A stretch of DNA of 64,000 nucleotides from Candidatus Omnitrophota bacterium (GTDB taxonomy: Bacteria; Omnitrophota; Gorgyraeia; Zapsychrales; Zapsychraceae): NCBI GenBank assembly GCA_035292445.1, contig DATDQB010000013.1, positions 82,132 through 146,131 on the forward strand, given 5' to 3'. Below are positions 1 to 41,726 of the stretch, one piece after another. The notes beneath the pieces are model-generated. The model did not search any database. It was not told the origin of the DNA and worked only from the letters and a program-made list of their open reading frames with translations. The translations under genes and the position numbers were made by a program. Each line of letters opens with the position of its first letter. Position 1 is the stretch's first letter.

Positions 1-3000
1 AGCATCCACACCTTTGACTTGCCTGTAGCTTCATCATACACAACGGTAAATTCCATATCCTGAACGTCGCGCCTGTTTTCCTCCAAATAAGCACCGATAA
101 GCCGGATATGTTTGGCCACCTCCAATAAACGTTCCATCAACCGATCGAAATTCAGGATTTCTTCCTTCCCTAAACTGCCATCGACAACTGCCTCTCCTTG
201 GGCATTGAAAGCAAAATCGATATTAAACTCTTTTGTCCCATCCCCCATGTCTCTGGTATGGGCAACACCTGTACCGGAATAATCGTTCAGATTTCCCAAA
301 ACCATTGATTGAATAGTAACGGCCGAACGTCCTTGTTCCGCCGTTAAGGGCGGATCCTGATTTGCTCTATAAACAATGGCCCGTTCATTATTGCTTGATC
401 TCATAACGGCCACAACCGCCCCTACCACCTGCTCATCAATATCCTGTGGAAACTCCAAACCTCTATCAGCCAATATCTGCTTAAACGTTCTAATAAGTTC
501 TTTTTGGGCTTCGACAGAAAGTCGGCTCTGATTCGATACCCCTTCTCTTTCAAGCATCCTTTCTTTCACCAACTTAAAATTGACCGGACTATTATCAACT
601 TCTTCTTCGATACCTAAGACCGTTTGACCGTACATTTCAATAGCGCGGGCATAACTTCCCCAGGCGCTTCTCTCATTGGTCGCTTCAACCAAAGCTTCAA
701 CCGTTTCATCGTTAAGACCTAAATTTAAGACCGTTTCCATCATGCCCGGCATGGACTCTGGGGCCCCGGAACGGACAGAAACGAGATGAGGAATGCCTTC
801 TCCCTTTCTAGCCCCCCACACCGTTCCCATGGACTGCGCTTGAACTCGAACAAGTTGTTTAATACGTTCTACAAGTTCGGATGATAATTTTCCTGTCTCA
901 CCCTCCTCAAAATGTAGCGTCTGCTCTGTGGCTACCGTCCCGGCCAGAGGAACGCTAATCGGATATTTACCGGCTAAAACATCTTCTCTTGTAATGCCAA
1001 ATCTTGCTAACCATGCCGGATCATCGGCATGGGCCTTTTGCCACTCTAAAAATGCTCTTGCATCATCATGGGCCATTTCAGCTAAATTGGCGCCCTTTCC
1101 TCCCAATACCATCTTCATTTTCACATTCCCTTTAGGCAGCTGGCGATCGATATCGGCGCCATAGTTGCCAACAAAATAAATCGGCGGATGCTCATCCCCC
1201 TCGAACGCCTCGGTGCCGGCGAGCATAGCGGAATCTTCCGGAACAAAAGCGCTCAAGCTCACCCCAATGGGCAACCCCCGCTTGTTCGGCCAAAGCATGG
1301 GTTCTCTGGTGGTCTTCAAACCGGCAAGAACAACTGCCAAATGATATTCTTCGTAAGGCAATATATACTGACCAGGCCAATGCGTTCCCTGATAGGCCGG
1401 AGCCAGCGTCTGCTCCAGCGCCATGGGTTGATTGATATCATTAGGAACCTCCTCAACCAATTGGTTAGCGCGCGGCTTGTGCAGCTCCAAAAGCCGCATG
1501 TGGTAATTCGGCCTGCCGGGTTCTTTTTCTATCCATCGCCTGAGGAAATTAATGAAATCAGCGGCAACCACATAACCAGGGAGCAAACGTCCCTGCGGTT
1601 CATCATCGCTGTACGAACCCTCAAATTGGGAAATGACCAACTGTGTCAACATCTCTTCATCGGAAGGAATATCATTTTCTTTTATGCCCAACTTTAATAA
1701 CGCTGCCGTTAAACGCGAGCGATCAACGGATTGAACGGCGCGACGAATAATTTCTCTGGCCTGATCTCTATCCTTTATTTTTAAACGTCTTTCATGAGGA
1801 ATAAACTCCTCGGTGTGGACAAAATCATCTTTGTCATAACCGCTAAGACCTATGGCATCCAATCGAGCCTTTAAATCCTCATTAAAATCTTCCGGGTCCG
1901 TAACATCGGCCCACATCACAATAACATGCAGCCCCTCAATGCCATCAAACTCCGCCATGGTGTCACGTTCCCGCCCCAAGGCCGCTTCATTGAAATCGGA
2001 AACCACAACCACCAACGGATGCGTTTTCAGATTCTTTCCGCGATCGGTGTACTTAAGAATATAACGGGTAACATCCCTTGCCAATTGAGCATCTCCGGAT
2101 CCCATATTGAAGAACCCGACAGACTGTTTATTTAAAGGTGTATTGTGATAAAGGTCGCGCACAAAGGTAAGAATACCGTCTTTAGTAATCTCTCCCGTCT
2201 CTTCATCAAATTCTCCCATATACGCATGATGCGCGCCGGAGGAACCCCAGATATCTTTGACCCGCCCGAATCGTCCCATGTGTTCATCGCTGTTTAGATT
2301 CAGCCGATTGGGATCACCGAACAAAAAATCCTCGAGATGAGCATCAATCAATGAATAAGCATCTGTCACGCCGTAAGAAGTGACTTTATCAAAAAAGGCT
2401 CTTCCCTTGTCTGTCAGGCTTACGAGTTGTTTATCAGCTTTAACAAGACCCTGCGCGTGCAGAAGCCGGAAAGCCTCATAAATAAAACCTTTGTTAAACT
2501 GTGCCGGCAGACGATCAAAAAAGAGATACCCGTTTTCATCAAACAACTCAAGAATGGAAGGGCCGATCTTGCTGATGATCCGATTTTCTATATTAAAAAA
2601 AGGCATCCCTAAAGAAACCATGACAGGGCTCATGAGCATTCCAATAAAATAGGAATGGATATGAATCAGGCCGCGCTGCAGGACAGGCATGGGCAACTGC
2701 GAAGAAAGCTTGGGTAAAACGATTTTGACCATTTCTAAATCTTGTTGATCCAACTCACTGGCAAGAATATTAAATATTTCAGAATATTCACTGTAATTTT
2801 TCTTCTTTAAGCGTTCAATAACACGTGTATATCTTTCGACCTTATCAACCAACTCTATAAATTCATCGTACGCCTTATGCACATCATCGCCTTTCCTTAT
2901 TGGCGGCCCCCGGCGAAAATAATCATGATATTCCAAAGCATTGGCTATGGCCCCATCAAAGGTTTCTAAATAACCCACTTTCGCCAGCTCGACCATCAAC

Positions 3001-4793
3001 CATCCCAAGTCCGTCAAGGCGACCTGTGTATCTTCATAGGCTGGTTTCATGCGCACAAGCCCCAAATGGGCCATATTCTCAAAAGCGCCGTAGATGTAAG
3101 CAAGATTTTCCTCACGGCCCTGGACCACTTCTTTGATCGAAACAAATCGGGAAGATCCGGGTTGGCCAAAACGGCTATCAAAGATTCCTTGTTGAGCCAG
3201 CGTATGCACGATGGGAACGCCTTTTTGCCCGTTGATATGCCGGAATAACGGATAAAGAACGTCCCTGGCCTGACTGATATTAACCCTGCCATCCAGGGCA
3301 ATACCCAGGCGGTCATGACGGCGTTGGGCCTCCCGAAGAGACATCAGTATGCCATCGATCTGGCGCTGTAAACGATCCCAATCTTCTCTTTCGCTTTCTT
3401 TATCAACTGTTGAAATGTCTCGTTGTAATCGAGTCAACCGACCACTTAACTCTCGAACCTCTCGTCCCATCCGCTCATGTTCCGCGACTAAAGTTACATA
3501 GGGCGCTGTCCTTAAGTTTTCATCGGCCGTCGCTTGAACCGTCATGGCATTGTCCAATTGAATATAAGGACCCGCCCTCAACGCTTCATACTCAGTCAAG
3601 TCTGGACGTACGCCTAAGAGCCCTACCGTAATACTATGAATGGACCCGTGGGCCAGCTGAGCGGCATCTGCCGGTGTCAGCTCTTCCACGCCAATAGGCG
3701 TGATTTCAGGCACAATCTTTGCCCCACCGGAGAAATACTTTCTGGGAATGATCTCTTGAGTGGCCGGGTCGTAATCTTCTTTGATAAAATCGTACACGCC
3801 TTTTTGGAAGGCCTGGAGATACTGCTCGTAAATTTTCTGCTTGGCCTGCGGGTCATCCGTATCAACGCCTTTGGTCTTGTTCTGATCGACATAAACTTTG
3901 GAAAGAATACTTTCTTTGAGAGTTTCCTTGTACCACGTGGCCAGAATGACGGCGTTATAGATCTGGCGCAAACCGGCGAAGGTCTTGCCCTCATTGATCT
4001 CTTTCTCGATCTCAGGAAGAACAATTTCTCGCATAATTTGAGTCATCAGTCGTCGGTCATCAGTCGTCAGATTTTCATGCGTTGACTGAAGACTGATGTC
4101 TGATGTCTGATGACTGATAGCTAAATAATCCTCTTCCAACATGACCTTCAGATGGCTGGCAACGATATAAGCGCTGCCTTGATGCTCCAAGACAACAGCC
4201 TTGTCCGGCACGATCCACACCTTGTTAAAAGTATTCATCGGGATGTCGGTCGTGCCGAATTTCTCAAAAGCTTTTTTGTGGACGCGTTTCCAGAATTCTT
4301 TGCCTAAATCATCTTCCGGATAGATCAGGGAAGCCGTCAGCTGTTTTAAAAGATAATCCTGACTCAAAAGATCGCGGCCCATTTCGGTGACACCGAAGGA
4401 TTCCGGAACAATACGACCTTTTTCGTAAGGTGAGAGATTAACCCAAAGCTCATCTTCCGGAACCGTTAAGGAGGCCAGAAAATATTTAATCAATCTGCTC
4501 GCTTCAACCCGCAAGGCTTCGCCCTCCAGGTTTTCATCGCCTGTATCAACAATAAAATCGAATTCAAGAGGATTGGTAGGATTCGGCGTGATGCCTTTAA
4601 TCAGAGCGGGCGTAAATCCGGGGCTTAGGGCGACCATGGTTCCGGGTGCTGGCAAGCTGAACATCCCCGGCGCGGGTAGAGATTGCGCAAAGGCCGTTGG
4701 CGGCGGAATAATAGCGCTTAAAAGAAAGCTGGCGCAAATGAAAGCGCAGAAAAGACGGTAAGCTAAAGATTTTTTGTATTGTGGATGAAACAT
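1..4793 (-). CDS. Giant multi-module secreted protein, paralog A. Start codon at 4793; ORF leaves the window at nt 1 (more than 1597 aa here). Signal peptide, conserved N-module, unknown middle module, then a pyruvate,phosphate dikinase-like module (nt ~1245 to 1 and beyond).
   Basis: Hand translation of the minus strand from ATG at 4793 gives MFHPQYKKSLAYRLFCAFICASFLLSAIIPPPTAFAQ-SLPAPGMFSLPAPGTMVAL..., then a block closely matching the N-termini of the 5097..12530, 14589..27587 and 27900..31268 ORFs (TVPEDELWVNLSPYEK, TEMGRDLLSQDYLLKQLTASLIYPE, NTFNKVWIVPDKA, PEIEKEINEGKTFAGLRQIYNAVILATWYK, IPRKYFSGG). I saw no in-frame stop down to nt 1. The ORF track omits it because its stop lies outside the window. 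The downstream module carries PPDK hallmarks: MVLGGKGANLAEM, HLVSVRSGAPESMPGMMETVLNLGLND, AIVYRANQDPPLTAEQ, GTGVAHTRDMGDG, DMEFTVVYDE. A Shine-Dalgarno-like AAGGGCAGGA lies upstream of the ATG. Confidence 0.75.
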   Translation of the reverse strand, partial: MFHPQYKKSLAYRLFCAFICASFLLSAIIPPPTAFAQSLPAPGMFSLPAPGTMVALSPGFTPALIKGITPNPTNPLEFDFIVDTGDENLEGEALRVEASRLIKYFLASLTVPEDELWVNLSPYEKGRIVPESFGVTEMGRDLLSQDYLLKQLTASLIYPEDDLGKEFWKRVHKKAFEKFGTTDIPMNTFNKVWIVPDKAVVLEHQGSAYIVASHLKVMLEEDYLAISHQTSDISLQSTHENLTTDDRRLMTQIMREIVLPEIEKEINEGKTFAGLRQIYNAVILATWYKETLKESILSKVYVDQNKTKGVDTDDPQAKQKIYEQYLQAFQKGVYDFIKEDYDPATQEIIPRKYFSGGAKIVPEITPIGVEELTPADAAQLAHGSIHSITVGLLGVRPDLTEYEALRAGPYIQLDNAMTVQATADENLRTAPYVTLVAEHERMGREVRELSGRLTRLQRDISTVDKESEREDWDRLQRQIDGILMSLREAQRRHDRLGIALDGRVNISQARDVLYPLFRHINGQKGVPIVHTLAQQGIFDSRFGQPGSSRFVSIKEVVQGREENLAYIYGAFENMAHLGLVRMKPAYEDTQVALTDLGWLMVELAKVGYLETFDGAIANALEYHDYFRRGPPIRKGDDVHKAYDEFIELVDKVERYTRVIERLKKKNYSEYSEIFNILASELDQQDLEMVKIVLPKLSSQLPMPVLQRGLIHIHSYFIGMLMSPVMVSLGMPFFNIENRIISKIGPSILELFDENGYLFFDRLPAQFNKGFIYEAFRLLHAQGLVKADKQLVSLTDKGRAFFDKVTSYGVTDAYSLIDAHLEDFLFGDPNRLNLNSDEHMGRFGRVKDIWGSSGAHHAYMGEFDEETGEITKDGILTFVRDLYHNTPLNKQSVGFFNMGSGDAQLARDVTRYILKYTDRGKNLKTHPLVVVVSDFNEAALGRERDTMAEFDGIEGLHVIVMWADVTDPEDFNEDLKARLDAIGLSGYDKDDFVHTEEFIPHERRLKIKDRDQAREIIRRAVQSVDRSRLTAALLKLGIKENDIPSDEEMLTQLVISQFEGSYSDDEPQGRLLPGYVVAADFINFLRRWIEKEPGRPNYHMRLLELHKPRANQLVEEVPNDINQPMALEQTLAPAYQGTHWPGQYILPYEEYHLAVVLAGLKTTREPMLWPNKRGLPIGVSLSAFVPEDSAMLAGTEAFEGDEHPPIYFVGNYGADIDRQLPKGNVKMKMVLGGKGANLAEMAHDDARAFLEWQKAHADDPAWLARFGITREDVLAGKYPISVPLAGTVATEQTLHFEEGETGKLSSELVERIKQLVRVQAQSMGTVWGARKGEGIPHLVSVRSGAPESMPGMMETVLNLGLNDETVEALVEATNERSAWGSYARAIEMYGQTVLGIEEEVDNSPVNFKLVKERMLEREGVSNQSRLSVEAQKELIRTFKQILADRGLEFPQDIDEQVVGAVVAVMRSSNNERAIVYRANQDPPLTAEQGRSAVTIQSMVLGNLNDYSGTGVAHTRDMGDGTKEFNIDFAFNAQGEAVVDGSLGKEEILNFDRLMERLLEVAKHIRLIGAYLEENRRDVQDMEFTVVYDEATGKSKVWM

Positions 4794-5096: not shown

Positions 5097-8000
5097 TTAA
5101 TTCAAGAGGCTGACCTTTTCAGGTTCTTTGGCTTGGACGTCAGGATTCAATCCAAATTCGTTTTCCTCTTCTTCCCCGCCCAATCCCAACAATAACGGCA
5201 GGTTCGTGACCGGTGTCACGTTAATGATGATGGGAATAAAGCCTTCGATGTGCATCTGTTGGATGGGCTGCTGGTTCATCGGCAGCGGAATGCCTTTGTC
5301 ATCGCGTTTAATTTGCAAATCTAAAAGTGCGGGGTTCAGATCGATACCACCGACCGGCCCCTGGTCTTGCGCCAACTGGGCGCCATCGGCTGGGCCTATA
5401 GCTCCTTCAACAGCACCTTTTAATTGAACAATAGTAAACGGCTTCGCCAAAATACCCAAATAATCTGAGGAACCCGCTACTTCGGCAGAAGGCGCTCCTT
5501 CATAATAACCGGACATGAGCTGCACCTTGATGCCGGGATGATTCCTGACAACATGGTCTGCCAGACTAAATCCGGTTTCATCCGGCATCACAATATCCGA
5601 TAAGACTAACACAAATTCCTGCTGAGATAATTGCTCTCTTGCTTCGGCGGCACTGGAAACAACCGTTACTTGATAACCAGCTCGCTCCAAAATCCGTCGG
5701 GCTACATTGCCCACAGATGCTTCATCATCCACCACGAGAACCCGCCGTGTTACCATCGCATTATCACCGTGGACGAAATCAGCTTCTATAAACCCACGTA
5801 ACGTTTCGCCGAAGGCTTCATCTTTTGAAATGACCCGCTTGATATCACCGGGCGACGCGGCTTGACGGTACAATTCCTTGGATGCTGTATCCCCAGCCCC
5901 AAAATCTCCAGACATCAAGATGACCGGAATATTGGGGAAATTAACATCCGCGACCCTTAGATCTGCCAGCGCTCTCGTTAATGCTATACCGCTGATCCGC
6001 GGCATGTTCAGATCTGTTAATATACCTGCAAAACGTGTCGGATTAGCTCGAATAATATCTAAGGCTATTTTCCCATCTTGGGCAACAACAACTCGGTAAC
6101 CCAGGCCTTCTAACATCTCTTTAAAATCTTCTCTTAAACCCGCATTGTCCTCGACAAGCAAAATCTCGCCCGTCACCATGGCTTGATCGGCGGATCCGAA
6201 GACTTCAGCGGCCATGGCCGAATCTCCAGAAACACTTCTTTGATTTCCGTCTCGATCAAAATAATAAAAATGCGTTTGTTGCCTCACATCTATTATAAAG
6301 ACAATAGGATAAACAAAAGCCCTGCCGCCAACATGACTGACATAAAATTCCCGCCTCTCGTTCACGGCCCTTAAAACACCCTCGCGTTCAACAAGAATGG
6401 AATCCGGAATCACGGCTTCCTTCAGAGGAAGCTCTTCCCCTAATTGGGCCAATATAACGCCCATTTTCTTGACCATTTCAGAATAAGCTTTAACGATAAA
6501 TCGAATATTGAGTAATTCGACCGGCCTTCTTAAAACAGAAAGATTCGCTTCCGTAACGTTCTGGATATCCATCGACTCTAACTCTCGCGTTGCTTCACTG
6601 ATGGTGGTGAGCAATTCATCGTCCTGAATTTGCGCATCCAGGGCGATATCTGACACTTTAGTGTAAACATTTTCTATCGATGATTTCTGCGCCCCCCTAT
6701 CTCCTCTGGTTTGACCGCGTAAAACTCTATCAGCCGCGATGTATTGTTTCATAATATCCGCGAACCTTAACAATTGTTCTCTTACTTCCGGGACGTCTTG
6801 AACACCGACGCCATAAAATGTAGCGCGAAGCTTCCTCGCCCGCTCAAAATCTTGGTCCCCTATCATCGCCGCGTCAGCCACTTGCGAGTCTGTCGAGACG
6901 TCGCTTGATAAAGCTTCTAATTGTGTTTCGACCATAGGAATATATTTAGTAATATCGGTTGCACTTAATAATAAAACCTGTGCTTGTAAAGCTAACCTTT
7001 CAGCTAATCCAAAATTCTGCGACTTTTGTTCAGCTATCCCTTCTTTCGTGACATTCGATGTGATCTGCGTATAAAATCGGATCGCTTGAGAAGTTCCTGA
7101 AGGGCGGATAGTGATATGATTTCTGCTATTAGTAAACGGGACCCCTGGCTCCAACGCTTCATCATCAAGAAAGAATCTAATGCCTTCATCCGGAAAACCT
7201 TCATAATGCTGAGCGTCATAACGCCCGGATTTGAATTCGACCGCGCCAATAATTCTTTGGCCAGATAAGACCCAAGGATTATCGGTTTGCGCCCGCGCAT
7301 TCGCTTCTTGCATCCATTCTTGAGCCTTCCTTAATAATTTAATTTTCTCCGTAATACCTTCAGCGCCTTCGAACGAGCCCACACGGGGCAAAGGCTTATT
7401 GGCTGTTGCATAATGACCGATCTGCATATAAATATCATCCAATAATTCGAATATCATTGTGCCCCGTTCTTTGGCGTAAGCTGCCACCTCTAACGCCAGG
7501 ATACCCGCAAAAACACCGTCTTTATCATTAACATGCCCGTCATCGGCTAAGATCTCTCCTTCGGCAACTGGCCCCCCCATAATGGAATAACCATTGGACT
7601 CTTCCTGCGATCCCTCATTGGTTAAACCCCGTTCACGCATCCTTTCAGCATACTGAGCTTGATACGTCATTCCCACCCATGCACGACGGCCGCTTAGATA
7701 ATCTCCCCTGTTCTCTTTTCCTGTCACATCCAACATCTCTCCGAGAGCTTGAACCCCGAACAAAGCCGCCACTTCCTCGATAGCATCTGTTGTAACATGG
7801 CTTAAACTAACAAAATGCTGCTGGGGATTCTCTAATAATCCCAGTTCTTTCTTTCTCATAAGCCTATACCATGTTAACAATGTCCAAAGATCATTTGCCG
7901 ACAATAAGCGATATTTGCCGAATAACTGCTGTTGGCTCTCAGGTACTTTGACAATCAGCCCTAAACGATCCGCATCGGGATCCGTTCCGATCAAGACATC

Positions 8001-11000
8001 TAACTGATCGAAAGCTTCCTGGCCATGCTCGGCTATAAATTCTTTTACAGCAATGTCCGCCGAAATCGAATCGCCGGGATCAGGCTGTTCTCCCCAACCA
8101 AAAGCCGGGAACAACCCGTCCAATTCCTGTAATTTTGAAATGACTTTATAATCCGTAAAACCTAACTCGGACAACAATCTGGGAACCGCTTTATTGCCCG
8201 ATCCGTTAAATGCCGAAAAGCCGATTCTTAAATTACCCGCTTGTTTTTGAACAACATCATTATCAATAATAAATTTTTTGACCTGCTCCGCATGCAACGT
8301 ATGCATGTCAATTAAATTGCCCGGCCTGCTGACATCAACTCCTTTATAATCCTTACCGTCAACGGGTGTTGCTCCGCCCAGCCATATTAATCGGCCCTCA
8401 CCAGCTTCTTCTAATGCTTTTAACTTGATATCAGCTACCGTTGTAGCATTGATAGCTTTTAAAACTTCATTCTTCATGCTTTGGGGTAACTGGGCTCCCG
8501 TGTTGTTGGTAATTTTATATCCATTGTACTGGCTTGGATTATGGCTGGCTGAGATAAGAATGCCGATATCCGCCCGAACAGCTTGTGTTGTGACACCAAA
8601 AGATAATTCCGGGAACGGGCTTGCTTCATCAAACAAATAAACAGTAAATGGATAATCCTCGCTAGACTGCCCAATAAAACTTTGTGCGATCATCTCGGCA
8701 AACTGCTCACCGGCGATCCGGCTGTCAAAGCCAATGGCGACTTTATGAAATCCGTTTGCTTTCATGTAATTGATGACACCCGCGGTGTATCGTAAAAGAA
8801 CAATATCATTGATCGTATTCGGCCCCTTCAGGATACCTGCGCCGGGCCCATAGGTTTTAAGCTCACGTAATTCATCCTCCGTTAACGCCGCTAATCCCCG
8901 AATACCAGCGGTTCCGAAGACGATATTTTGCCGAAACACTTCAACTAAATCCTTCCATCGCTCTTCCTGTATCGCTTTCAGTATTGCCACCTGTGTTTGT
9001 GGAGAAATCCTCTCGATATCAGGATTCGTTGCCCAAGCTTGGAGGTTGGGAAATGTTTCAGCAAGGGCTTTATTGAATATTTCATCGGTGATCCTTCCTT
9101 CACTATGTTGTTCTCTTAAGTAGTCCTCAATGCTACCTTTTGCAGAAGCAACCACCGAATTTCGACTCACCAGCATTGCGCGATCGGGTGAAAAGATCTC
9201 AACCTCACCTTGCTGATCAATCTTTAGACTGATATTTCTTAGAATCAATCTCCCATCATCGGTTTTCTCAAAAATACCTGCATATCGAGCATCATTAAGG
9301 TCAACTATTTCTTTAAATTCACTGGCAATCGTGACACTCCCTTCCAAGACCGCTCTTTGTAAATGCACCCGGCCGGCGATGCTTAATTCATCCAAATTCG
9401 TCATATCCGTGCCATCTAAAGCCCGAATGGCATTTTCCACATCCTCATAATACGGATCCATTGCTCCAAACCCCGGAAGATGCGGCGCGGCATTGTTGAC
9501 TAAAACACCGTTTGCGGCATCCACGCTAAAATGACCGGTGTGCGCATAAAGAATATGATCAAACGCGTATTTGGTCGGGGTAAAAAAATTGGTACGGTTT
9601 TGCGGGTCAACATTAACCATATAAAGAAGCCGCTTAAAACCATATTTGTTGTCCTCCAACAAAGCGCGCACCCTCTCGTCATCGGTCGTAGTCACAAAAG
9701 CATTTAAATTTAAAAGAGCCGAACCCATGGCTCCCTCCAACTGTTTAACGCTTCGCCCCTCTTTTATTTTTGAATTACCAATCAAATCAGGCGTAACAAT
9801 CTCATTAAATTTCTCGCGGCCGATAATCTCCAACAAATCTTTTAAGAAAGGCTGAAGCACGCTGTAATTCATAACAGCGACATTGGTATTAAAAAGCTGT
9901 CCGCCAGGCTCTCCTTGCGTTAAACCCATCTCATAAAACAGCTGTTTTTGCTCGTCAGTCACTTGAGCTAATTCAAGGATTTGCGGTGCCGACTTGCCAT
10001 TAGGCAGCACTTGCCGGCCCAATTGTCCTCCCTTTTTATCCAACGGCGTTTTAGTGGTTGTAATCATAACAATAGGGATTTTATTAGTGACCATCCAGCC
10101 AATAATATAATTGTCGGGAACATTGTTGACCCCATCACCGTTATAAACGCTGCGGATTAACGCTTGGCCGTCTGTTGGTAAATCGACCGTTAAAGCGTCC
10201 TGTAAGGCCATTGAACCTAATTGCCCATGCCCGCCCGGTGCCGTAAAATCAGTGGTTAGCTCACCCGTTTCGATATCGATGACGGGTAATGAAGCCTGTT
10301 CAATCATGCGTTGGCCAAGTTCTATGCCCGGCGTTTCCTCAATCACCTGACGATAAGTTCTTCTTTGCGAAGCGGGAATAGATTGGTCGATACGGTCAAA
10401 TAGATAAATCGTTTCACCAAGAAAATGCGTCATTGGGCCGATACTCTCTTCATTAACCAACTCTTGAATAACCAAATTGGCGAATTGACCCTGTTGGGCG
10501 GCTTTAATGGCTCGAATATATTTTAATTCTGTGATGCTGACCAATTCCGTAACTGTTATGGGTTGGCCGCTTTCATCATGTCCTTGCATCTGCACTTCAA
10601 AGAATAAATCCATTGATTTGGCGCCTAACTGAGACCGTCCCGTAAGTCGCAGTAAATAATCTTTGCGTTTAACGCTCGTTCCCAAACCACCATCCATCGG
10701 ATTGGCCAAAACAATTGATTGCGCCGCGGCTTGTGCGTAGGCAGGGTTATCAGCAATTTGCGTCGTATAGCCCATTTCCCCTAATTCTTCTTTTCTTTGA
10801 TCAGAAGTCAATAAAGCAGATGGAAAAAAATTACCGCCAATCTTCAATGATTGCTCTTGTTGTGAAGAGCTTTTCGAGCGGACATATTTAGCGTAAAGAC
10901 CCGCCATATAGGAACGATCGAACCCAGCCAGGCCTAATGGGGCAACAAAGGCTTCAAATTCGGCTAGTGAAAGCATCGCCCGGTCGGTAGGAGCGCTGGC

Positions 11001-12530
11001 CTGCAATCTCTCTCTGGCCCGGCCGAGCCTTAATATATCGTTGGCAAACTGGGTAAGCTTTTCCCTGGCCTGTCTTCTGACCTGGGCATTCCCTTCACGT
11101 GTGTCTCTTTCGGCTAGCAGGGCGGCGGCTTCGATCCTGGCGGTTAATCCATCGATTTCTTCAAGGTTATAACGGTTCTCTCTTAGACCCCGCCGCTCCT
11201 GTTGTGTTAAAGTATTATCTGCCAACATCGACTGGTCGGAACCAATAGTAGCCATAGCTCCCGTTGCCCTTTGTGCCTCGGCAACACCGTTTATTCCGAC
11301 CTCGTTCAAGGCAACCGTTACGCGCTCTGTTTCTCCGTGGTCAACCACGGCGGCAACAAAATCCGTAACTCTGCCGCGCTGCTCTGGCCTTAAAACCTCC
11401 TGGCTTGCTTTAATACTCTCGAAACTCATCATCGCCCGGTCAATAACGTATCCGCCGGAGAAATATTTGCGCGGGATCACCTCTTGGGTGGCGGGGTCGT
11501 AATCTTCCTTGATATATTCATAAACGCCTGTCTTGAACGCTTCCAGATATTGGCTGTAAATCTTCTCTTTAATGGACTTATCCTCAATATCGATGCCGAC
11601 AATTTTGTTCTGGTCGACATACACTTGGCCCAAGAGGGATTCTTTCAGATTCTCCTTGAACCAGATCGCAAGAAGCAACGAATTCGTGATCTGTCTTAAG
11701 GCGGCAAAGGTCTTGCCTTCATTGACTTCCTTTTCAATTTCGGGGATCAAGACCTCGCGAACGACCTGGGAGCTGACCTCATTAATGGCCTCGACATCTT
11801 TGTTGGCCAGCATGTCGGTGCCGAACTTTTCGCTGCCGATATTCTCCTGTAACGCAACGTAATCCTCTTCCAGCATGACGCGCATGTGGCTTTCGATGAC
11901 ATACGCCGTTCCCTGATGTTCATAAATGGTCGCTTTATCCGGCAGGATCCAAACTTTATTGAAGGTGTTAACAGGAATATCTTTTGTCCCGTACAACTCA
12001 AAAGCCTTCTTGTAAACACGATCCCAGAACTCTTTGCCCAAGTCTTTTTCCGGATAGATCAATGAAGCGGTCAATTGTTTCAAGATATAATCTTGGGCCA
12101 AAAGATCGCGGCCCATCTCCGTTTGGCCGAATTTTTCCGAGATGATCCGGTTCTTTTCATAAGGGGAAAGGTTGACCCACAGCTCATCTTCGGGAACCGT
12201 TAAGGAGGCCATGAAATATTTGATGAGCTTGTTGGCCTCCATGCGTAACTCTTCGCCTTCTATCTTGTCATCACCTGTATTGACCAAAAAATCGAATTGC
12301 AAAGGATTTTCGGGATTAAGCGTTAGACCGATGATCATGGCAGGCGTATAACCCGGGCTCACGGAAACCATTGTTCCGGGTGCGGGAAGATTCAAAATGG
12401 TTTGCGGATTGATCTGGGCGAAACTGGCTTGCGGCGGAAGAATGAGGCTTGAAATAAATGAAGCGGAAATAAGAACCGAAAGGAGCTTTCTTAAAAATGA
12501 ATTTTCGCAGGTATGCAGGTACTTAAACAT
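5097..12530 (-). CDS. Giant multi-module secreted protein, paralog B (2477 aa): signal peptide, conserved N-module, UDP-sugar pyrophosphorylase-like module, phosphohexomutase module, unknown module, two CheY-like receiver domains, conserved C-module.
   Basis: A 7.4 kb uninterrupted ORF. The N-terminus MFKYLHTCENSFLRKLLSVLISASFISSLILPPQASFAQ looks like a signal peptide. UDPGP-like motifs: NPMDGGLGTSVKRKDY and ITTTKTPLDKKGGQL. Alpha-D-phosphohexomutase motifs: IVFGTAGIRG and SASHNPSQYNGYK. Two REC domains: EILLVEDNAG...ILTDLNMP...VILMSGD and RRVLVVDDEAS...VLSDIVMPDETG...KVQLMSGY. The C-terminus is VGGIDLNPALLDLQIKRDDKGIPLP...GFIPIIINVTPVTNLPLLLG. Confidence 0.85.
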   Translation of the reverse strand: MFKYLHTCENSFLRKLLSVLISASFISSLILPPQASFAQINPQTILNLPAPGTMVSVSPGYTPAMIIGLTLNPENPLQFDFLVNTGDDKIEGEELRMEANKLIKYFMASLTVPEDELWVNLSPYEKNRIISEKFGQTEMGRDLLAQDYILKQLTASLIYPEKDLGKEFWDRVYKKAFELYGTKDIPVNTFNKVWILPDKATIYEHQGTAYVIESHMRVMLEEDYVALQENIGSEKFGTDMLANKDVEAINEVSSQVVREVLIPEIEKEVNEGKTFAALRQITNSLLLAIWFKENLKESLLGQVYVDQNKIVGIDIEDKSIKEKIYSQYLEAFKTGVYEYIKEDYDPATQEVIPRKYFSGGYVIDRAMMSFESIKASQEVLRPEQRGRVTDFVAAVVDHGETERVTVALNEVGINGVAEAQRATGAMATIGSDQSMLADNTLTQQERRGLRENRYNLEEIDGLTARIEAAALLAERDTREGNAQVRRQAREKLTQFANDILRLGRARERLQASAPTDRAMLSLAEFEAFVAPLGLAGFDRSYMAGLYAKYVRSKSSSQQEQSLKIGGNFFPSALLTSDQRKEELGEMGYTTQIADNPAYAQAAAQSIVLANPMDGGLGTSVKRKDYLLRLTGRSQLGAKSMDLFFEVQMQGHDESGQPITVTELVSITELKYIRAIKAAQQGQFANLVIQELVNEESIGPMTHFLGETIYLFDRIDQSIPASQRRTYRQVIEETPGIELGQRMIEQASLPVIDIETGELTTDFTAPGGHGQLGSMALQDALTVDLPTDGQALIRSVYNGDGVNNVPDNYIIGWMVTNKIPIVMITTTKTPLDKKGGQLGRQVLPNGKSAPQILELAQVTDEQKQLFYEMGLTQGEPGGQLFNTNVAVMNYSVLQPFLKDLLEIIGREKFNEIVTPDLIGNSKIKEGRSVKQLEGAMGSALLNLNAFVTTTDDERVRALLEDNKYGFKRLLYMVNVDPQNRTNFFTPTKYAFDHILYAHTGHFSVDAANGVLVNNAAPHLPGFGAMDPYYEDVENAIRALDGTDMTNLDELSIAGRVHLQRAVLEGSVTIASEFKEIVDLNDARYAGIFEKTDDGRLILRNISLKIDQQGEVEIFSPDRAMLVSRNSVVASAKGSIEDYLREQHSEGRITDEIFNKALAETFPNLQAWATNPDIERISPQTQVAILKAIQEERWKDLVEVFRQNIVFGTAGIRGLAALTEDELRELKTYGPGAGILKGPNTINDIVLLRYTAGVINYMKANGFHKVAIGFDSRIAGEQFAEMIAQSFIGQSSEDYPFTVYLFDEASPFPELSFGVTTQAVRADIGILISASHNPSQYNGYKITNNTGAQLPQSMKNEVLKAINATTVADIKLKALEEAGEGRLIWLGGATPVDGKDYKGVDVSRPGNLIDMHTLHAEQVKKFIIDNDVVQKQAGNLRIGFSAFNGSGNKAVPRLLSELGFTDYKVISKLQELDGLFPAFGWGEQPDPGDSISADIAVKEFIAEHGQEAFDQLDVLIGTDPDADRLGLIVKVPESQQQLFGKYRLLSANDLWTLLTWYRLMRKKELGLLENPQQHFVSLSHVTTDAIEEVAALFGVQALGEMLDVTGKENRGDYLSGRRAWVGMTYQAQYAERMRERGLTNEGSQEESNGYSIMGGPVAEGEILADDGHVNDKDGVFAGILALEVAAYAKERGTMIFELLDDIYMQIGHYATANKPLPRVGSFEGAEGITEKIKLLRKAQEWMQEANARAQTDNPWVLSGQRIIGAVEFKSGRYDAQHYEGFPDEGIRFFLDDEALEPGVPFTNSRNHITIRPSGTSQAIRFYTQITSNVTKEGIAEQKSQNFGLAERLALQAQVLLLSATDITKYIPMVETQLEALSSDVSTDSQVADAAMIGDQDFERARKLRATFYGVGVQDVPEVREQLLRFADIMKQYIAADRVLRGQTRGDRGAQKSSIENVYTKVSDIALDAQIQDDELLTTISEATRELESMDIQNVTEANLSVLRRPVELLNIRFIVKAYSEMVKKMGVILAQLGEELPLKEAVIPDSILVEREGVLRAVNERREFYVSHVGGRAFVYPIVFIIDVRQQTHFYYFDRDGNQRSVSGDSAMAAEVFGSADQAMVTGEILLVEDNAGLREDFKEMLEGLGYRVVVAQDGKIALDIIRANPTRFAGILTDLNMPRISGIALTRALADLRVADVNFPNIPVILMSGDFGAGDTASKELYRQAASPGDIKRVISKDEAFGETLRGFIEADFVHGDNAMVTRRVLVVDDEASVGNVARRILERAGYQVTVVSSAAEAREQLSQQEFVLVLSDIVMPDETGFSLADHVVRNHPGIKVQLMSGYYEGAPSAEVAGSSDYLGILAKPFTIVQLKGAVEGAIGPADGAQLAQDQGPVGGIDLNPALLDLQIKRDDKGIPLPMNQQPIQQMHIEGFIPIIINVTPVTNLPLLLGLGGEEEENEFGLNPDVQAKEPEKVSLLN

Positions 12531-12843: not shown

Positions 12844-12918
12844 CGTCCCTGTAGCTCAGGTTGGATAGAGCATTTGCCTTCTAAGCAAAGGGTCGCACGT
12901 TCGAATCGTGCCAGGGAC
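12844..12918 (+). tRNA. tRNA-Arg (anticodon TCT)
   Basis: Clean cloverleaf: acceptor GTCCCTG/CAGGGAC, D-arm GCTC-AGGTTGGATA-GAGC, anticodon stem TTTGC/GCAAA with loop CTTCTAA (anticodon TCT), T-arm GCACG-TTCGAAT-CGTGC, discriminator A. CCA is not encoded. Confidence 0.85.
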
Positions 12919-12999
12919 ATTCTTTCTTAGTATATGCTATGCCCTGCCCCGACGCGCTATTACATAGCGGTCGGGGTCCCGACCGAGGTGAAACCGAGC

Positions 13000-13074
13000 G
13001 TCGGGATAGCTCAGGTTGGATAGAGCATTTGCCTTCTAAGCAAAGGGTCGCACGTTCGAATCGTCCCGGGGTCA
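13000..13074 (+). pseudogene. Degenerate tRNA-Arg-like copy. Its 57-nt core (D-arm to T-arm) is identical to the upstream tRNA-Arg, but its acceptor-stem strands (GTCGGGA ... CGGGGTC) cannot pair and its T-stem has one mismatch.
   Basis: The core TAGCTCAGGTTGGATAGAGCATTTGCCTTCTAAGCAAAGGGTCGCACGTTCGAATCGT is repeated exactly. The 5' strand GTCGGGA instead pairs with the upstream TCCCGAC to form a separate hairpin. I could not fold a canonical cloverleaf. Confidence 0.5.
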
Positions 13075-13086
13075 TTTTCTTTAACC

Positions 13087-14058
13087 ATGAAGATAAAACC
13101 CATCTATCGATTCTTTATATGGCTCGCCTTCATCGGCCTCGTTATCCTGGCCTTCCTGGCCTATTACTTCCAGAACCATGAAAAAGACCTCTTCCTTGCC
13201 GCCCTGCGGTCTTCTCTCGACCAAGGCATCAGCGCTTCCGATGTCGATTATGATTTCCCCTTCGGGTTCAGCTTGGATGACTTCCAGATCGAAGGCGTCG
13301 TTCAGGCAAAAAAATTAAGCGCCCAGCTTGACCCGCGTTCTTTCATAGAAAAAAAGATCATCCTTAGCCAGATGACCCTTCACCAGCCTATTATCACCTG
13401 GCGTAAAGAAAAAAAGGCGGCCGCTATCGCGGAAAATCAAAATGTTTCCAACGGGCCTTCGGTTGGCACCCCGAAAACGATCCCCCAGGAGGCATCAAAA
13501 CTTATTATCAAGCAGCTGCGCATAAAAAACGGCCGTTTCCATTTTGCCGATGAATCGGCCATCCCGGCCCTTTCCTTTAAGCTGGATAATCTCCAGATGA
13601 AAATCGAAGACCTTATTTTTCCGCTGTCTCCAACGGCAACCACCTTTCAATTGAAAGCCAATCTGATCAAAGAAAACGCCCCGGTTTCGGGCAGCGTTGT
13701 GCAAAGTAACGGCTGGATCGATCTGGCCAAAAAAGACCTGGATGGAACTCTTCTTATCATTGAATCGGACGGTAAGACCGGCTTAAGCGCCCATGCGATC
13801 TCAAAAAACAACGATTTAAACGTCGAAGGCAAGATCAAGGCGCAAAACTTGTTCAAACAGTCCGGCGAAAATCCATTGGAGACGACTGTGGATAATATCG
13901 TCCTTAACACCTTATCGAATATGGGCATCGAGATCGGTGCAAGTTTTTCCTTTAATACCAAACTCGATGATTTTCGCATCGAACAGATCTCTTTCTCAGG
14001 AAGCGTCTCCACTCATGAGGTTCCCGCAACCGAGCCGATGAATCCTGTTGCGCCGTAG
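13087..14058 (+). CDS. Membrane protein with an AsmA-family-like N-terminal region (323 aa): one N-terminal TM helix, then a periplasmic beta-rich region.
   Basis: The N-terminus MKIKPIYRFFIWLAFIGLVILAFLAYYF is a single TM helix. The architecture resembles the start of the 1033-aa AsmA-like protein at 31606. The gene is on the opposite strand to the giant genes and sits just after the tRNA-Arg pair. Confidence 0.55.
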   Translation: MKIKPIYRFFIWLAFIGLVILAFLAYYFQNHEKDLFLAALRSSLDQGISASDVDYDFPFGFSLDDFQIEGVVQAKKLSAQLDPRSFIEKKIILSQMTLHQPIITWRKEKKAAAIAENQNVSNGPSVGTPKTIPQEASKLIIKQLRIKNGRFHFADESAIPALSFKLDNLQMKIEDLIFPLSPTATTFQLKANLIKENAPVSGSVVQSNGWIDLAKKDLDGTLLIIESDGKTGLSAHAISKNNDLNVEGKIKAQNLFKQSGENPLETTVDNIVLNTLSNMGIEIGASFSFNTKLDDFRIEQISFSGSVSTHEVPATEPMNPVAP

Positions 14059-14172: not shown

Positions 14173-14250
14173 GGTGGGTGTAGCGCAGCTGGTTAGCGCA
14201 CAAGATTGTGGATCTTGTGGTCGCGGGTTCGAATCCCGTCACCCACCCCA
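14173..14250 (+). tRNA. tRNA-His (anticodon GTG) with genomically encoded G-1 and 3' CCA
   Basis: G-1, then acceptor GTGGGTG/CACCCAC, discriminator C, CCA encoded. D-arm GCGC-AGCTGGTTA-GCGC. Anticodon stem CAAGA/TCTTG with loop TTGTGGA (anticodon GTG). T-arm GCGGG-TTCGAAT-CCCGT with one G-U pair. Confidence 0.85.
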
Positions 14251-27899: not shown

Positions 27900-30800
27900 T
27901 TACCTGTCAAGCCCTAATTCTTGCTGCATGTTCAGATCGCGTTCCACCCGCGTGATCACCGGCTCAAAGCCACCAAGGTTTAAATTTTCAATGGTGGAGG
28001 CTGCAATCGTCATTTGGACGCCGTTCCCCTCCCGCTGAACGACCAAATTCAACATAGCCATATTCAAATCAATACCACCCCTACTATCCCTGTTACCCGT
28101 ATCAAGCTGGGCCATGCCGCGCCCTATAACCTGAGCCATATTAGAAATTAGCCTCTGCTCTCTGATACGAGCCAATGAATCGGCAGAGATATTCGGTCTT
28201 TGCTGTAATACTGATAACAACCTTTCTTCTCCCCCATCAAAGGCTTGGGGATTATTTCTAGCTAAATCGCCAAAAGCGGTCACGATAGGTTCAAAATCAA
28301 TCGATTGAATACCACTGGCACTCATAACTTGTTCAGCCATGGGTCTAAAGACATCTTGGAAGACTTGGGGATTGGCTATATTTTGCGGCATCAATCTTAA
28401 GAGGGTATCCGACTGCTGCCTCGCGCTGGAAACCTCTCCAAATTGCCGAACCACAAAAGCGTTCGAAGCCTTTTCCGCGGTTTCAGGAGCGGCTCCTACT
28501 TCACGTAGGCCTGCTTGAAATTCGCTTAACGAACGTAGCGCTGCTGGATTTCTTTCGGCTAGTTGCGCAACCTGGCCGGGCAATGCCTGGATTTCCTCAG
28601 ATGTAAATCGAAGACCGAATTGAGACACCTCTGGCGCCCGTAAAGAGTCCCTATAATCATCTTCAAAGGCCTGCCCCATAGCCGCCTCTACAACAACACG
28701 GGCAAGTGTAGGGTTATAGCTCATCCGATCCCCAGCAGAAGAGGATTCAGCAACCGCCTGGTAAATCCGCCCAGACAGCCCTTCGCTATTATCTATAACA
28801 ATACCTGCCATTCTTTGGGCAAGCGGCTCAGCCACGTTCAAACTCCGTAATTCGGTCAAATAAGTGCTTCTTAAGCCATCGCGGTCTCCCAAGAGCTCAG
28901 GCTTGGCAAGGACATTCACTAATGCCTGCGCCGCCGGCTGGGCTTCCGATGGGTTAAGAGGGGTTGTCCGATTAAGCGCCTCGGCTACATTAATAACATT
29001 CGTTCGTTGATCTCCAACCAACGCAAATCGCGTCGAAGAACTGGCCAAATGGCTATCAACACCTTTGAATTCCTCCGCTTGCCCGGCCAAATTATTAATC
29101 CGGTCAATAACTTCTTTGGTAGCGACCCGGCTCGCCAAATTACGGACAGAATCTTCAGGCATCTGCGGCTGCGCGATCCTTAAGCCTTCGGTTATTTTTT
29201 GCTCGAGTTGATCCAATGACCCATATTCGCGTAAATTTTGCATTACAGGTGTAACAGCTGCAATTTCATCTTCATTAAAATTATCCGTCTGCAAAGCGGA
29301 CGTCACAATGCTTTGCATACGCGGCTGATTGACGGCGTAAAGAACAGGCATAACGGATATTTGCATATTGAATTGATAACGGCCCTGGGTTTGGTCGGCC
29401 ACTTCGCGCATGGTATCCAAATCCGAGGCAATTCTTGCGGCAGTAACAGCCGTCGGCCGGTCGATGCCCTCCCTTTCCAAGCCAGCGGTAATGGCCGCTT
29501 CGTATTGAATAGGCGTTGAGAAAGCTTCCGGTGATTGCGTCCTAAGGCGTGTTATGACTTGAGCTGTTGTTGCCGCTACAGATCGGGCTTGGGCAGGTTC
29601 GATTTCTCCTTCTCCTATTAATCTATTCGCTACGCTCGCGCTATACGCATTGCCGGCTAATTGTTGATTGGCAGCAATACCGCTGGCGACATCAACTAAT
29701 ACCGGCTGAGGCGTTGAGCGTTCAAAAACCGTTTGGGCTAAAGATGGCAGGCTCTTTTCGACCGTAGGGAGTGTTTGTTGGGAGATCCCTCGAGAGCTTA
29801 AAACACTCATAATCTCTTGAGTGGTACTTCGCGGCGCCCGGCGTAACGTGTCCCCCACTATACCCACCACTAAACTAATTTCTTCCTGCGGCACTCCTTG
29901 CTGCCCTAAAGAACGCCCAAGCTCGGCATTAAAAGAAGGAGCGTTTGTCCTAAGAACGGCAGCCATATTAGGCAAAGTGATGCCCATGTCTTGTGCGGCG
30001 TTTGGTTCCCGGTTTCCCAAGGCGAAAGAGACTCTTGCAACCCTTTCAGGGTTAGTCGTGGCTCTTTCCAACAGCCTATTGACCGAAGTCATCATAGCCT
30101 CATCAAGGCCGGCTTGGGCCAAGGGTACTTCTGCGGAAACCTGCGTTGTCCCTGCCCGAACGACTTGAGCCGCTCGATCCCCCGCAAAACCTCCCGAATA
30201 ATACCGCTTCGGCACCAAAGAAAATGTCTCCAAATCAAATTCTTTTGTCGTATACTCATAAGCTCCCTGCTGGAATGTCTCCAGATATTTATCAAAAATC
30301 TTTTCTTTAACCGCCCTGTCTTGTGTGTCTACGCCTTCAATTTTATTCTTATCGACATACACTTGGCTTAAAAAACTCTCTTTCAAATTTTGTTTATACC
30401 ACGTTGCCAGAATCATGGCATTGTAAATCTGCCTTAAATTGGCGAAATTCTCCCCTTCATTGACTTCTTTTTCAATTTCCGGAACAATGACTTCCCTGAC
30501 AACATTACTGGCAATAGCATTGATCTTCTTGACGTCATCTTCCTGCATCCGGTCCGTGCCGAATTTCTTATTATCCATATTTTCCTTTAATCCCAAATAA
30601 TCTTCCTCTAGCATCACTTTTAAATGGCTGTCCAAAACAATGGCGTTGTTACCTCTTTCTAAAACAACCGCTTGATCAGGGACAATCCAAATCTTGTTAA
30701 ATGTGTTCATCGGTATGTCAGAAGCGCCGTAGAGCTCGTTGGCTTTGCTTTGGACTTTTTGCCAGAACTCTTTTCCTAACTGATTTTCGGGATACATTAA

Positions 30801-31268: not shown

Positions 31269-31440
31269 TCCACCAGTCCTCGTTTATAGAAAACAATTCT
31301 TTTTTCTGGGAGGATTCACAAGAACCTTATCGTGGCAATGATTTTCTATGGTGTAAATATAACATTATTAATAATTACTGTCAATGAGGCCATCAGAGGC
31401 GGCGCCATAGAAAGATCGAGGACGAATATTATTTAAATGG

Positions 31441-31514
31441 TCGGGGCGGGGGGATTCGAACCCACGACCCCTTGCTCCCAAAGCAAGTGCGCTAGCCAGC
31501 TGCGCTACGCCCCG
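31441..31514 (-). tRNA. tRNA-Pro (anticodon TGG)
   Basis: The reverse complement folds with acceptor CGGGGCG/CGCCCCG, D-arm GCGC-AGCTGGCTA-GCGC, anticodon stem CTTGC/GCAAG with loop TTTGGGA (anticodon TGG) and a T-loop TTCGAAT. The T-stem has one non-Watson-Crick pair. Confidence 0.8.
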
Positions 31515-31605
31515 TTATATTTTTTGAATAGTGGCGCTTAGTATATCATTGGGTTTTGAAATTTGCAATTACTGTAAAATTACCCACTTATGCTATAATA
31601 CCGCC

Positions 31606-41608: not shown

Positions 41609-41726
41609 AATAGTACTATTCAAATTAATATTTATGGAAAGTAGTGCCCCTATTTTTATACAAGGAAAGAAAACTGTCAAGCTTCATTTAAGAATCCCCC
41701 TTTAAAACGCCTTTAATCCGAGCGGT

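Follow-up and report, generated by a model that had tools for sequence, protein, structure and literature searches.

Omnitrophota are widespread, uncultivated and probably predatory or parasitic bacteria, and their huge proteins pairing export signals with cytoplasmic enzymes are an open puzzle. The phylum has been inferred to consist of predators or parasites (PMC10066038), and RNA of the cultured predator V. archaeovorus was seen within dead prey cells (PMC13153191). In giant Omnitrophota proteins, West-Roberts et al. 2023 (10.1101/2023.11.21.568195) noted glycolytic domains with a puzzling extracellular prediction and suspected that transmembrane segments had been overlooked. Nielsen and Lui 2026 (10.64898/2026.06.07.730766) reported a Pfam module joining phosphoglucomutase/phosphomannomutase (PGM/PMM) and receiver (REC) domains, with its function left open, a signal peptide or transmembrane helices in 94% of long proteins and, on the basis of KEGG Orthology (KO) assignment, the absence of isocitrate lyase and malate synthase (0/176 complete Omnitrophota genomes). 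Here, we analyzed a 64,000-nucleotide stretch of contig DATDQB010000013.1 from a Candidatus Omnitrophota bacterium, hereafter the window, with a focus on gene B, which encodes two receiver domains behind a predicted Sec signal peptide.

B is one of four tandem paralogues (Z, B, A and C), all on the minus strand, and a protein identical to it was called on four metagenome contigs, the longest of 149 kb. The protein consists of a signal peptide, a conserved N-module, a series of cargo modules and a conserved C-module; its two REC domains are the last two cargo modules. Four Pfam families scored above their curated cut-offs (UDPGP, PGM_PMM_I, PGM_PMM_II and Response_reg), with UDPGP covering residues 740-1061 and the phosphoglucomutase domains I and II residues 1238-1526. 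The layout, compiled from the open reading frame (ORF) list, translation and Pfam, is as follows (aa, amino acids).

5097..12530, minus strand: gene B, 2,477 aa
12417..12530, minus strand: predicted cleavable Sec signal peptide, aa 1-38, ending ...ASFA|Q (rule-based)
11442..12416, minus strand: conserved N-module, aa 39-363, hallmark WVNLSPYE / TEMGRDLLAQDY
9186..10985, minus strand: UDP-glucose pyrophosphorylase (UGPase) cargo module, aa 516-1115, Pfam UDPGP 1.4e-13
6876..9185, minus strand: phosphoglucomutase/phosphomannomutase (PGM) cargo module, aa 1116-1885, Pfam PGM_PMM_I and PGM_PMM_II
6225..6875, minus strand: cargo module of unknown function, aa 1886-2102, starting at DAAM
6177..6188, minus strand: junction motif DQAM before REC1, aa 2115-2118
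5766..6176, minus strand: receiver domain REC1, aa 2119-2255, Pfam PF00072 and PDB matches
5754..5765, minus strand: junction motif DNAM before REC2, aa 2256-2259
5361..5753, minus strand: receiver domain REC2, aa 2260-2390, Pfam PF00072 at residues 2264-2374
5175..5360, minus strand: conserved C-module, aa 2391-2452, GGIDLNPALLDLQIKRD...GFIPIIINVTPVTNLPLLLGL

The initial annotation had placed two CheY-like receivers near the C terminus of B, and these proved genuine. PF00072 matched B in two stretches with 109.1 bits, above the curated cut-off of 30.2, receiver-containing NCBIfam models matched as well, and the proposed ranges agreed with the mapped domains to within a few dozen bases. In sequence matches to solved structures, REC2 was closest to a hybrid-kinase receiver (28tm_A, 4.8e-11), while REC1 matched DivK and CheY homologues (~1e-7). 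Alignment with CheY, Spo0F and DivK assigned the phosphorylation pocket to E2127-D2128, D2173, S2207 and K2231 in REC1 and to D2268-D2269, D2312, S2340 and K2363, followed by Pro, in REC2, so that both keep the conserved constellation. The proposed phospho-acceptor Asp and Lys were, therefore, borne out, while the supposed Thr is in both domains a Ser, a common variant at this position. REC1 further deviates by an Arg in place of the usual Pro after the Lys and by an insertion before beta-4. Judged by sequence, both receivers are intact and phosphorylation-competent. REC cargo recurs across the protein family to which B belongs: 11 distinct members contain 15 distinct domains of this kind, several of them in tandem and four directly preceding the C-module, as in B. 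Because all 15 keep the acidic pair and the phospho-Asp, a role as phospho-independent interaction modules, one of the options first proposed, is disfavored. Neither B nor any window ORF of at least 150 aa contained HisKA, HATPase_c or Hpt in Pfam scans, and B does not qualify as a hybrid histidine kinase, HisKA and HATPase_c not being part of the same polypeptide as its receivers. Kinase cargo as an in-family phosphodonor was rejected, with zero histidine-kinase H-boxes in 415,000 residues of family sequence.

The presence of receivers on an exported-looking protein had rightly been called contradictory. The N terminus of B has basic residues (K3, R14 and K15), a hydrophobic core spanning aa 16-31, with the Kyte-Doolittle peak at aa 13-31, and the sequence S-F-A|Q, and residues 35-43 are disordered in the predicted AF2 model. 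It thus conforms to the rule-based pattern of a cleavable type I signal peptide, with a basic n-region, a hydrophobic core and small residues at -3 and -1. The same features recurred among 179 distinct N termini of the family: the n-region had a median of four K/R and zero D/E and was net positive in 99%, the uncharged stretch had a median of 19 residues, and an A-Q pair preceded a conserved LNLP.PG motif in 161 (90%), mostly with A/S/V/G/T at -3. Hydropathy analysis revealed no second convincing transmembrane segment in B; the one further hydrophobic stretch, within the C-module (IPIIINVTPVTNLPLLLGL), contains three prolines. Taken together, export of B appears likely.

Instead of being the isolated oddity first assumed, B belongs to a huge modular family. 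Its three paralogues in the window are listed below (FBP, fructose-bisphosphate).

1..4793, minus strand: paralogue Z, start codon at 4793, extending beyond the window; length on the source contig 4,030 aa
14589..27587, minus strand: paralogue A, 4,332 aa, with malate synthase, isocitrate lyase and class I FBP aldolase cargo and 15 D-x-A-M motifs
27900..31268, minus strand: paralogue C, 1,122 aa, cargo without a Pfam match

An N-terminal hydrophobic segment and a conserved region of ~325 aa, the N-module, are common to A, B, C and Z, with 52-63% identity of the N-module among A, B and C. These three also share the ~60-aa C-module (GGIDLN...GF.P.I...LLG); the C terminus of Z lies outside the window. 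An N-module profile retrieved 8,409 representative clusters from 1.84 billion proteins, 6,809 of them at E <= 1e-30, in which the module was always located at the N terminus of proteins with total lengths of 420 to 5,312 aa. At least 594 N-module loci were present in GTDB species genomes, often several per genome, and the 79 of these that were listed came from metagenome-assembled genomes (MAGs) labeled Omnitrophota, 'Planctomycetales' (probably mislabeled) or, once, 'bacterium'. The family is, thus, very large, with labeled members nearly all from Omnitrophota MAGs. In 58 of 64 complete family ORFs, a local hidden Markov model detected a single C-module at most 90 aa from the C terminus.

Profile searches with the N-module and the C-module yielded no Pfam or NCBIfam model and no sequence relative in the PDB. 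The AF2 model of the N-module (pLDDT 84.7) predicts a mixed alpha/beta fold with long helices. The best Foldseek matches, ClyA-family toxins (E 0.14, TM ~0.1), were below significance and count as leads at most, so that a structural identification on this basis was rejected. When a minimal member was modeled over its full length with AF2, confidence was confined to the N-module and the beginning of the C-module, the cargo remaining at pLDDT <50.

Between these conserved ends, the cargo varies. In 32 full-length members, it comprised PGM, PGK, pyruvate phosphate dikinase (PPDK), GH116, SNF2 and DEAD helicases, alanine dehydrogenase, guanylate kinase, protein kinase, PP2C, ROK, UGPase, acyltransferase, HEAT repeats and REC; C-module-bearing fragments add triose-phosphate isomerase and class II aldolase. 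Paralogue Z carries an AprA-like methyltransferase and PPDK. Paralogue A contains both malate synthase (aa 861-1089) and isocitrate lyase (aa 2282-2473), which contrasts with the KO-based absence of these enzymes; whole-protein orthology calls may overlook domain-level cargo. Inferring from Pfam names, the combined cargo of A, B, C and Z could plausibly lead from C2 units via gluconeogenesis to UDP-glucose. As a description, the modular build of Sec signal peptide, ~325-aa N-module, variable cargo string and ~60-aa C-module is secure.

The strongest independent clue to export is the lack of cysteine, since cysteine exclusion has been documented for exported proteins (Daniels et al. 2010, PMC2823432). 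The one Cys of B is at residue 8, within the signal peptide, leaving mature B cysteine-free, and in Z (1,597 residues) Cys likewise occurs only in the signal peptide. In ~7,800 residues of mature A, B and C there are two Cys, both in the catalytic motif GCKMCGH of the isocitrate lyase in A. Other window ORFs contain ~1% Cys, or 1.6% when one very Cys-rich ORF is counted. The low content extends family-wide, with 112 Cys in 220,800 residues from 136 diverse representatives (0.05%) and 0-0.4% in 64 complete family ORFs from genomes. Because the catalytic Cys of isocitrate lyase is spared, we argue that the cargo is kept active. The purge is family-specific, since another ORF of the window specifies a Flp/TadE-like protein that appears to be exported and has 61 Cys.

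44016..45263, plus strand: Cys-rich ORF, 415 aa, 61 Cys (14.7%), no Pfam match

The N terminus of this ORF (RRG|QHVMEYSIVLIITMVAMMIAL; G|QHVMEY) resembles a Flp/TadE-type prepilin signal, behind which comes a domain rich in Cys, Gly and Pro. Located nearby are a secretin gene (40049..41680) and a gene for an Rce1-like protease with TPR repeats (41727..43037).

These data bear on whether B leaves the cytoplasm at all. The N terminus might be an uncleaved anchor or unused for export, in which case B would be a membrane-tethered multi-enzyme scaffold at the cytoplasmic face with RECs phosphorylated by ordinary histidine kinases of the cytoplasm and regulating UDP-glucose synthesis. Every identifiable cargo domain is of cytoplasmic type, and among the 79 listed loci, family genes were preceded by an OmpR-type regulator or single-domain receiver in 11 and by a HAMP-HisKA-HATPase kinase in six. 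A cytoplasmic-face reading was also favored by Nielsen and Lui 2026 for those Omnitrophota giants of the TM-only class that contain PGM and REC. For B, however, the charge distribution predicts an N-in, C-out orientation, the A-x-A-type site is conserved in 90% of members, and no second membrane span would return the cargo. In addition, 0.05% Cys would be unexplained for cytoplasmic enzymes, given about 0.7-3.5% in most cytoplasmic-type proteins of the window, and no kinase is encoded in these 64 kb (ORF domain scans). We, therefore, regard such a scaffold as unlikely. A membrane anchor with unusual topology, as the initial annotation had suggested, is similarly not supported, considering the cleavable-type N termini throughout the family, the single convincing hydrophobic segment and the cysteine-free mature proteins.

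The motif D-x-A-M was first noted ahead of each receiver, and we found it at both sites (DQAM, DNAM), with an additional DSAM at aa 2103-2106, 12 residues upstream of DQAM. Rather than being linked to RECs, it is a general module-junction motif. B contains eight copies (0.47 expected from shuffles) and A 15 (1.27 expected). Family-wide, D.AM occurs 279 times in 266,000 cargo residues versus 31 expected from shuffles, a ninefold enrichment, and D.AML 109 times versus 2.5 expected, a 44-fold enrichment, while control motifs were not enriched. None of the 23 motifs of A and B falls inside a Pfam domain stretch, for which we estimate a chance of ~0.003 at ~22% length coverage. Of the cargo alignment ends, 28% lay no more than 25 aa from a motif, versus 6% at random. 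The UGPase module of B (516-1115), bounded by DRAM motifs at 516 and 1116, aligns motif to motif with differently placed modules in other members. Residues 1886-2089, from the module that lacked a match in the Pfam scan, align with residues 3590-3788 of A at 24% identity, and DAAM opens both. In A, RDQKGTPKEGDAAM occurs twice (aa 1400-1413 and 1922-1935) with identical DNA over the 33 bases compared, which suggests a recent internal duplication that included the junction motif.

At the nucleotide level, the motif is usually encoded in this lineage as GAC-GCG-GCG-ATG, and about three quarters of the motifs in the window use GCG for the Ala preceding Met, versus 23-31% overall. In other genomes, motif codons are at background usage (GCG 34% versus 29%, p = 0.27). 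A nucleotide-level signal GAC-NNG-GCG-ATG was, therefore, rejected: the codon bias in the window is real yet missing elsewhere and, hence, lineage-specific. In other members, homologous boundaries carry DNAIL, DNATL or DSAIL. Given these variants and the background codon usage outside this lineage, D-x-A-M is best described, from the aligned sequences, as a peptide-level feature.

The same data address an internal translation start at the motif Met, by which the giant ORF would additionally give rise to individual cytoplasmic proteins, free single-domain response regulators among them. The motif Met coincides with the initiator Met of stand-alone homologues for REC1, REC2 and the aldolase module, and the GCG preference before Met in the window would fit such a function. 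The variants at the same boundaries, however, show the Met to be dispensable and led us to reject internal starts as a general explanation. Codon usage at background level in other genomes, the lack of a consistent Shine-Dalgarno-like sequence ahead of the motifs, the ~100 residues separating the motif from the beginning of PGM and UGPase and the unexplained cysteine exclusion also speak against them, so that we consider this origin of free receivers highly improbable. A 372-aa gene call (P0377) that begins at the DSAM Met and is identical to the C terminus of B is not evidence for an internal start, because it lies at the very start of its contig (locus L083, ENA ERZ27254865 k141_1381985, positions 42..1160) and is, thus, a truncation artefact of the contig end.

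The enzymatic cargo in A and B is of cytoplasmic, nucleotide-dependent type and, to judge from the PGM and UGPase loops and the isocitrate lyase Cys, appears active. All four signature loops are kept in the PGM module (SASHNP 1327, DPDADR 1517, EESNG 1643 and RPSGT 1809), and the UGPase module has its GGLGTS loop at aa 614. With these signature loops intact in both, PGM and UGPase represent consecutive enzymatic steps towards UDP-glucose.

We tentatively favor a reading that is plausible without being probable, namely that B is exported and that its REC domains, as phosphorylation-competent cargo, act beyond the cytoplasm of the producer, possibly within prey. Here, B would be exported by Sec and its signal peptide removed at A38|Q39, as the sequence rules support. 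The purged cysteine might keep the protein disulfide-free, which would fit a further, unfolded translocation step, with the N-module and C-module possibly serving as sorting or translocation elements. The D-x-A-M junctions could act as hinges or processing sites that separate the modules. More speculatively, the cargo would be active where nucleotides and phosphodonors are available, the most plausible such compartment being the cytoplasm of host or prey cells, in which the PGM and UGPase modules might run their two consecutive steps towards UDP-glucose. The RECs might there take phosphoryl groups from foreign kinases or acetyl phosphate and, once phosphorylated, regulate neighboring modules or serve as phosphate sinks. 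The likely export implies a site of action outside the producer's cytoplasm, and a host or prey cell is proposed as the target because a nucleotide-containing compartment best reconciles export with conserved catalytic and phosphorylation sites. Action inside another cell, one of the initially suggested options, is the reading most compatible with exported cargo needing nucleotides. The site of action is, nonetheless, the weakest step of this explanation.

Exported B might instead stay with its producer, in the periplasm or at the surface, held by the N-module, the C-module or both, with RECs lacking a dedicated kinase. It could then belong to a structural coat, function as an adhesin or process metabolites from lysed prey. 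The signal peptide and cysteine exclusion apply equally to this scenario, both conserved ends could be anchors, and the model of the minimal member is confident only in the N-module and the start of the C-module. Moreover, giant Omnitrophota proteins have been proposed to act as a coat or in extracellular sugar pre-processing (PMC10066038; 10.1101/2023.11.21.568195). On the other hand, UTP, ATP, acetyl-CoA and phosphodonors are unexpected outside a cytoplasm, but the REC phosphorylation pocket, the catalytic loops and the Cys of isocitrate lyase have all been conserved, and SNF2/DEAD helicases, protein kinase and PP2C as cargo have no obvious extracellular substrate. We consider retention by the producer doubtful.

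Several observations weigh against export with action in another cell. The signal-peptide call for B is only rule-based, and the N-module has no significant similarity to known secretion or translocation domains in PDB fold and sequence searches. Glycolytic and glyoxylate enzymes would be unusual effectors, and proteins of 2-5 kaa (thousand amino acids) are large substrates for any translocon. About half of the family members lack D-x-A-M, while some carry at least ten. No H-box was found in the family sequence, and no translocation machinery was identified beside the family genes, where the neighbors are AsmA/DUF748 proteins and tRNAs. Finally, the regulators and histidine kinases upstream of family genes (11 and six of the 79 listed loci) could hint at ordinary cytoplasmic signaling. 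In sum, the interpretation of the initial annotation is partly supported.

A further step would be to view the N-/C-module family as an Omnitrophota-specific delivery system, in which unfolded, Sec-exported, cysteine-free polyproteins enter prey or host cells and are separated at D-x-A-M into working enzymes and RECs. We think this improbable at present. If true, the four genes would supply isocitrate lyase, malate synthase, PPDK, FBP aldolase, phosphoglucomutase and UDP-glucose pyrophosphorylase, converting C2 units to activated hexose and diverting prey carbon to sugars usable by a fermentative predator, while the REC domains would tap or drain prey phosphorelays.

The genomic neighborhood was assessed for the window and the 79 listed related loci, across which no recurrent neighboring protease or secretion gene was found; the neighbors that did repeat were limited to response regulators or single-domain receivers, histidine kinases and DUF748 proteins. 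The features around the giant genes are as follows.

12845..12919: tRNA-Arg(TCT)
13087..14058, plus strand: AsmA/DUF748-like gene flanking family genes
14174..14250, plus strand: tRNA-His(GTG)
31438..31514, minus strand: tRNA-Pro(TGG)
31531..34632, plus strand: second AsmA/DUF748-like gene flanking family genes

The three tRNAs lie between the giant genes, and a weak, partial tRNA-like match at 13007..13066 (33.5 bits) was detected with Rfam and absent from ARAGORN. Similar DUF748 ORFs occur near family genes in four of the 79 listed loci, and these periplasm-spanning proteins might be linked to the family. The regulator loci (L006, L011, L015, L021, L026, L037, L040, L042, L052, L064 and L074) have the regulator on the same strand and upstream of the family gene in nine of 11 cases, with an adjacent histidine kinase ORF in L006, L015, L042 and L064. 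Pfam identified the two scanned regulators as OmpR-type (L015) and a single-domain receiver (L006) and the L015 kinase as HAMP-HisKA-HATPase_c. Such neighboring response regulators may control family-gene expression. Further away, two adjacent short ORFs on the plus strand (47005..47481 and 47478..47987) match two domains of vitamin K-dependent gamma-carboxylase, HTTM and lumenal, with each match covering only part of the profile, and may represent a split or frameshifted gene.

For the giant-protein puzzle, the window offers a compact and tractable form, with proteins of 1-4 kaa rather than 10-150 kaa whose conserved ends, junction motif and cysteine purge, sparing a catalytic site, serve as handles. 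A vague puzzle is, thereby, converted into a defined, testable family. Should export and delivery hold true, this would be a new protein-delivery family with cargo including metabolic pathways and two-component modules, and it would change the view of Omnitrophota nutrition and predation.

Compared with known systems, the receivers of B are like CpdR, DivK, CheY and hybrid-kinase receivers in matching PF00072 with a complete phosphorylation pocket, the best matches being CpdR, CckA-type and hybrid-kinase receivers. Unlike hybrid kinases and single-domain regulators, B has no HisKA/HATPase, Hpt or output domain, and its RECs stand behind a signal peptide, in tandem after sugar-nucleotide enzymes, and are cysteine-free. 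REC1 additionally differs from CpdR, DivK and CheY by its insertion and by having no Pro behind the conserved Lys. Cysteine is scarce in autotransporter passengers and type I substrates. The strong Cys depletion of the family is as in the membrane-crossing proteins of Daniels et al. 2010 (PMC2823432). In contrast to known cysteine exclusion, the family purges whole enzymes that normally hold Cys while sparing the isocitrate lyase catalytic site, and the genome that shows this purge also encodes a pilin-like protein that is very rich in Cys and apparently exported. With the Omnitrophota giant multi-enzyme proteins, the family shares the phylum, a signal peptide followed by strings of cytoplasm-type domains and many enzyme Pfams per chain. 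The surveys of such giants, however, cover proteins of at least 10 kaa (Nielsen and Lui) or from ~30 kaa upwards (West-Roberts), most of which contain numerous transmembrane helices. B, with its 2,477 aa, lies below the 10,000 aa threshold and has no internal transmembrane segment.

Two-partner secretion (TPS) exoproteins and CdiA toxins combine a Sec signal, a conserved N-terminal domain of ~300 aa and a very large, cysteine-poor passenger. In CdiA, a VENN motif marks the joining point of variable modules, and many paralogues with shuffled modules exist. The family described here is similar in its Sec signal, conserved N-terminal domain, large Cys-poor passenger, junction motif and shuffled paralogues. 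It differs from TPS proteins in that the N-module is modeled as mixed alpha/beta with long helices rather than a beta-helix and has no Pfam TPS (Haemagg_act) match; ORF domain scans revealed no TpsB/Omp85/ShlB gene in the window. Unlike in CdiA-type toxins, the cargo is metabolic and signaling instead of toxic, and the C terminus is conserved instead of variable. MARTX toxins have conserved N- and C-terminal regions around a variable effector array, whose effectors are cut apart and act in the target cytoplasm, and use a cysteine protease domain and type I secretion. Conserved ends flanking a variable domain array are also found in our family, which, unlike MARTX, has an N-terminal Sec signal, no Cys in mature B, no related Pfam match and no sequence or fold similarity. 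By analogy, the family, thus, resembles TPS/CdiA exoproteins and MARTX toxins, yet departs from the defining properties of both. That exported Omnitrophota proteins carry domains of cytoplasmic type has been noted as a general paradox in two preprints (10.64898/2026.06.07.730766; 10.1101/2023.11.21.568195). Cysteine is unmentioned in both, we did not find the N-/C-module family or the D-x-A-M junction described there, and the family hallmark motifs were not found in the literature searched. Against this background, the compact N-/C-module family and its defining features, near-absent Cys and D-x-A-M-L junctions, appear to be new.

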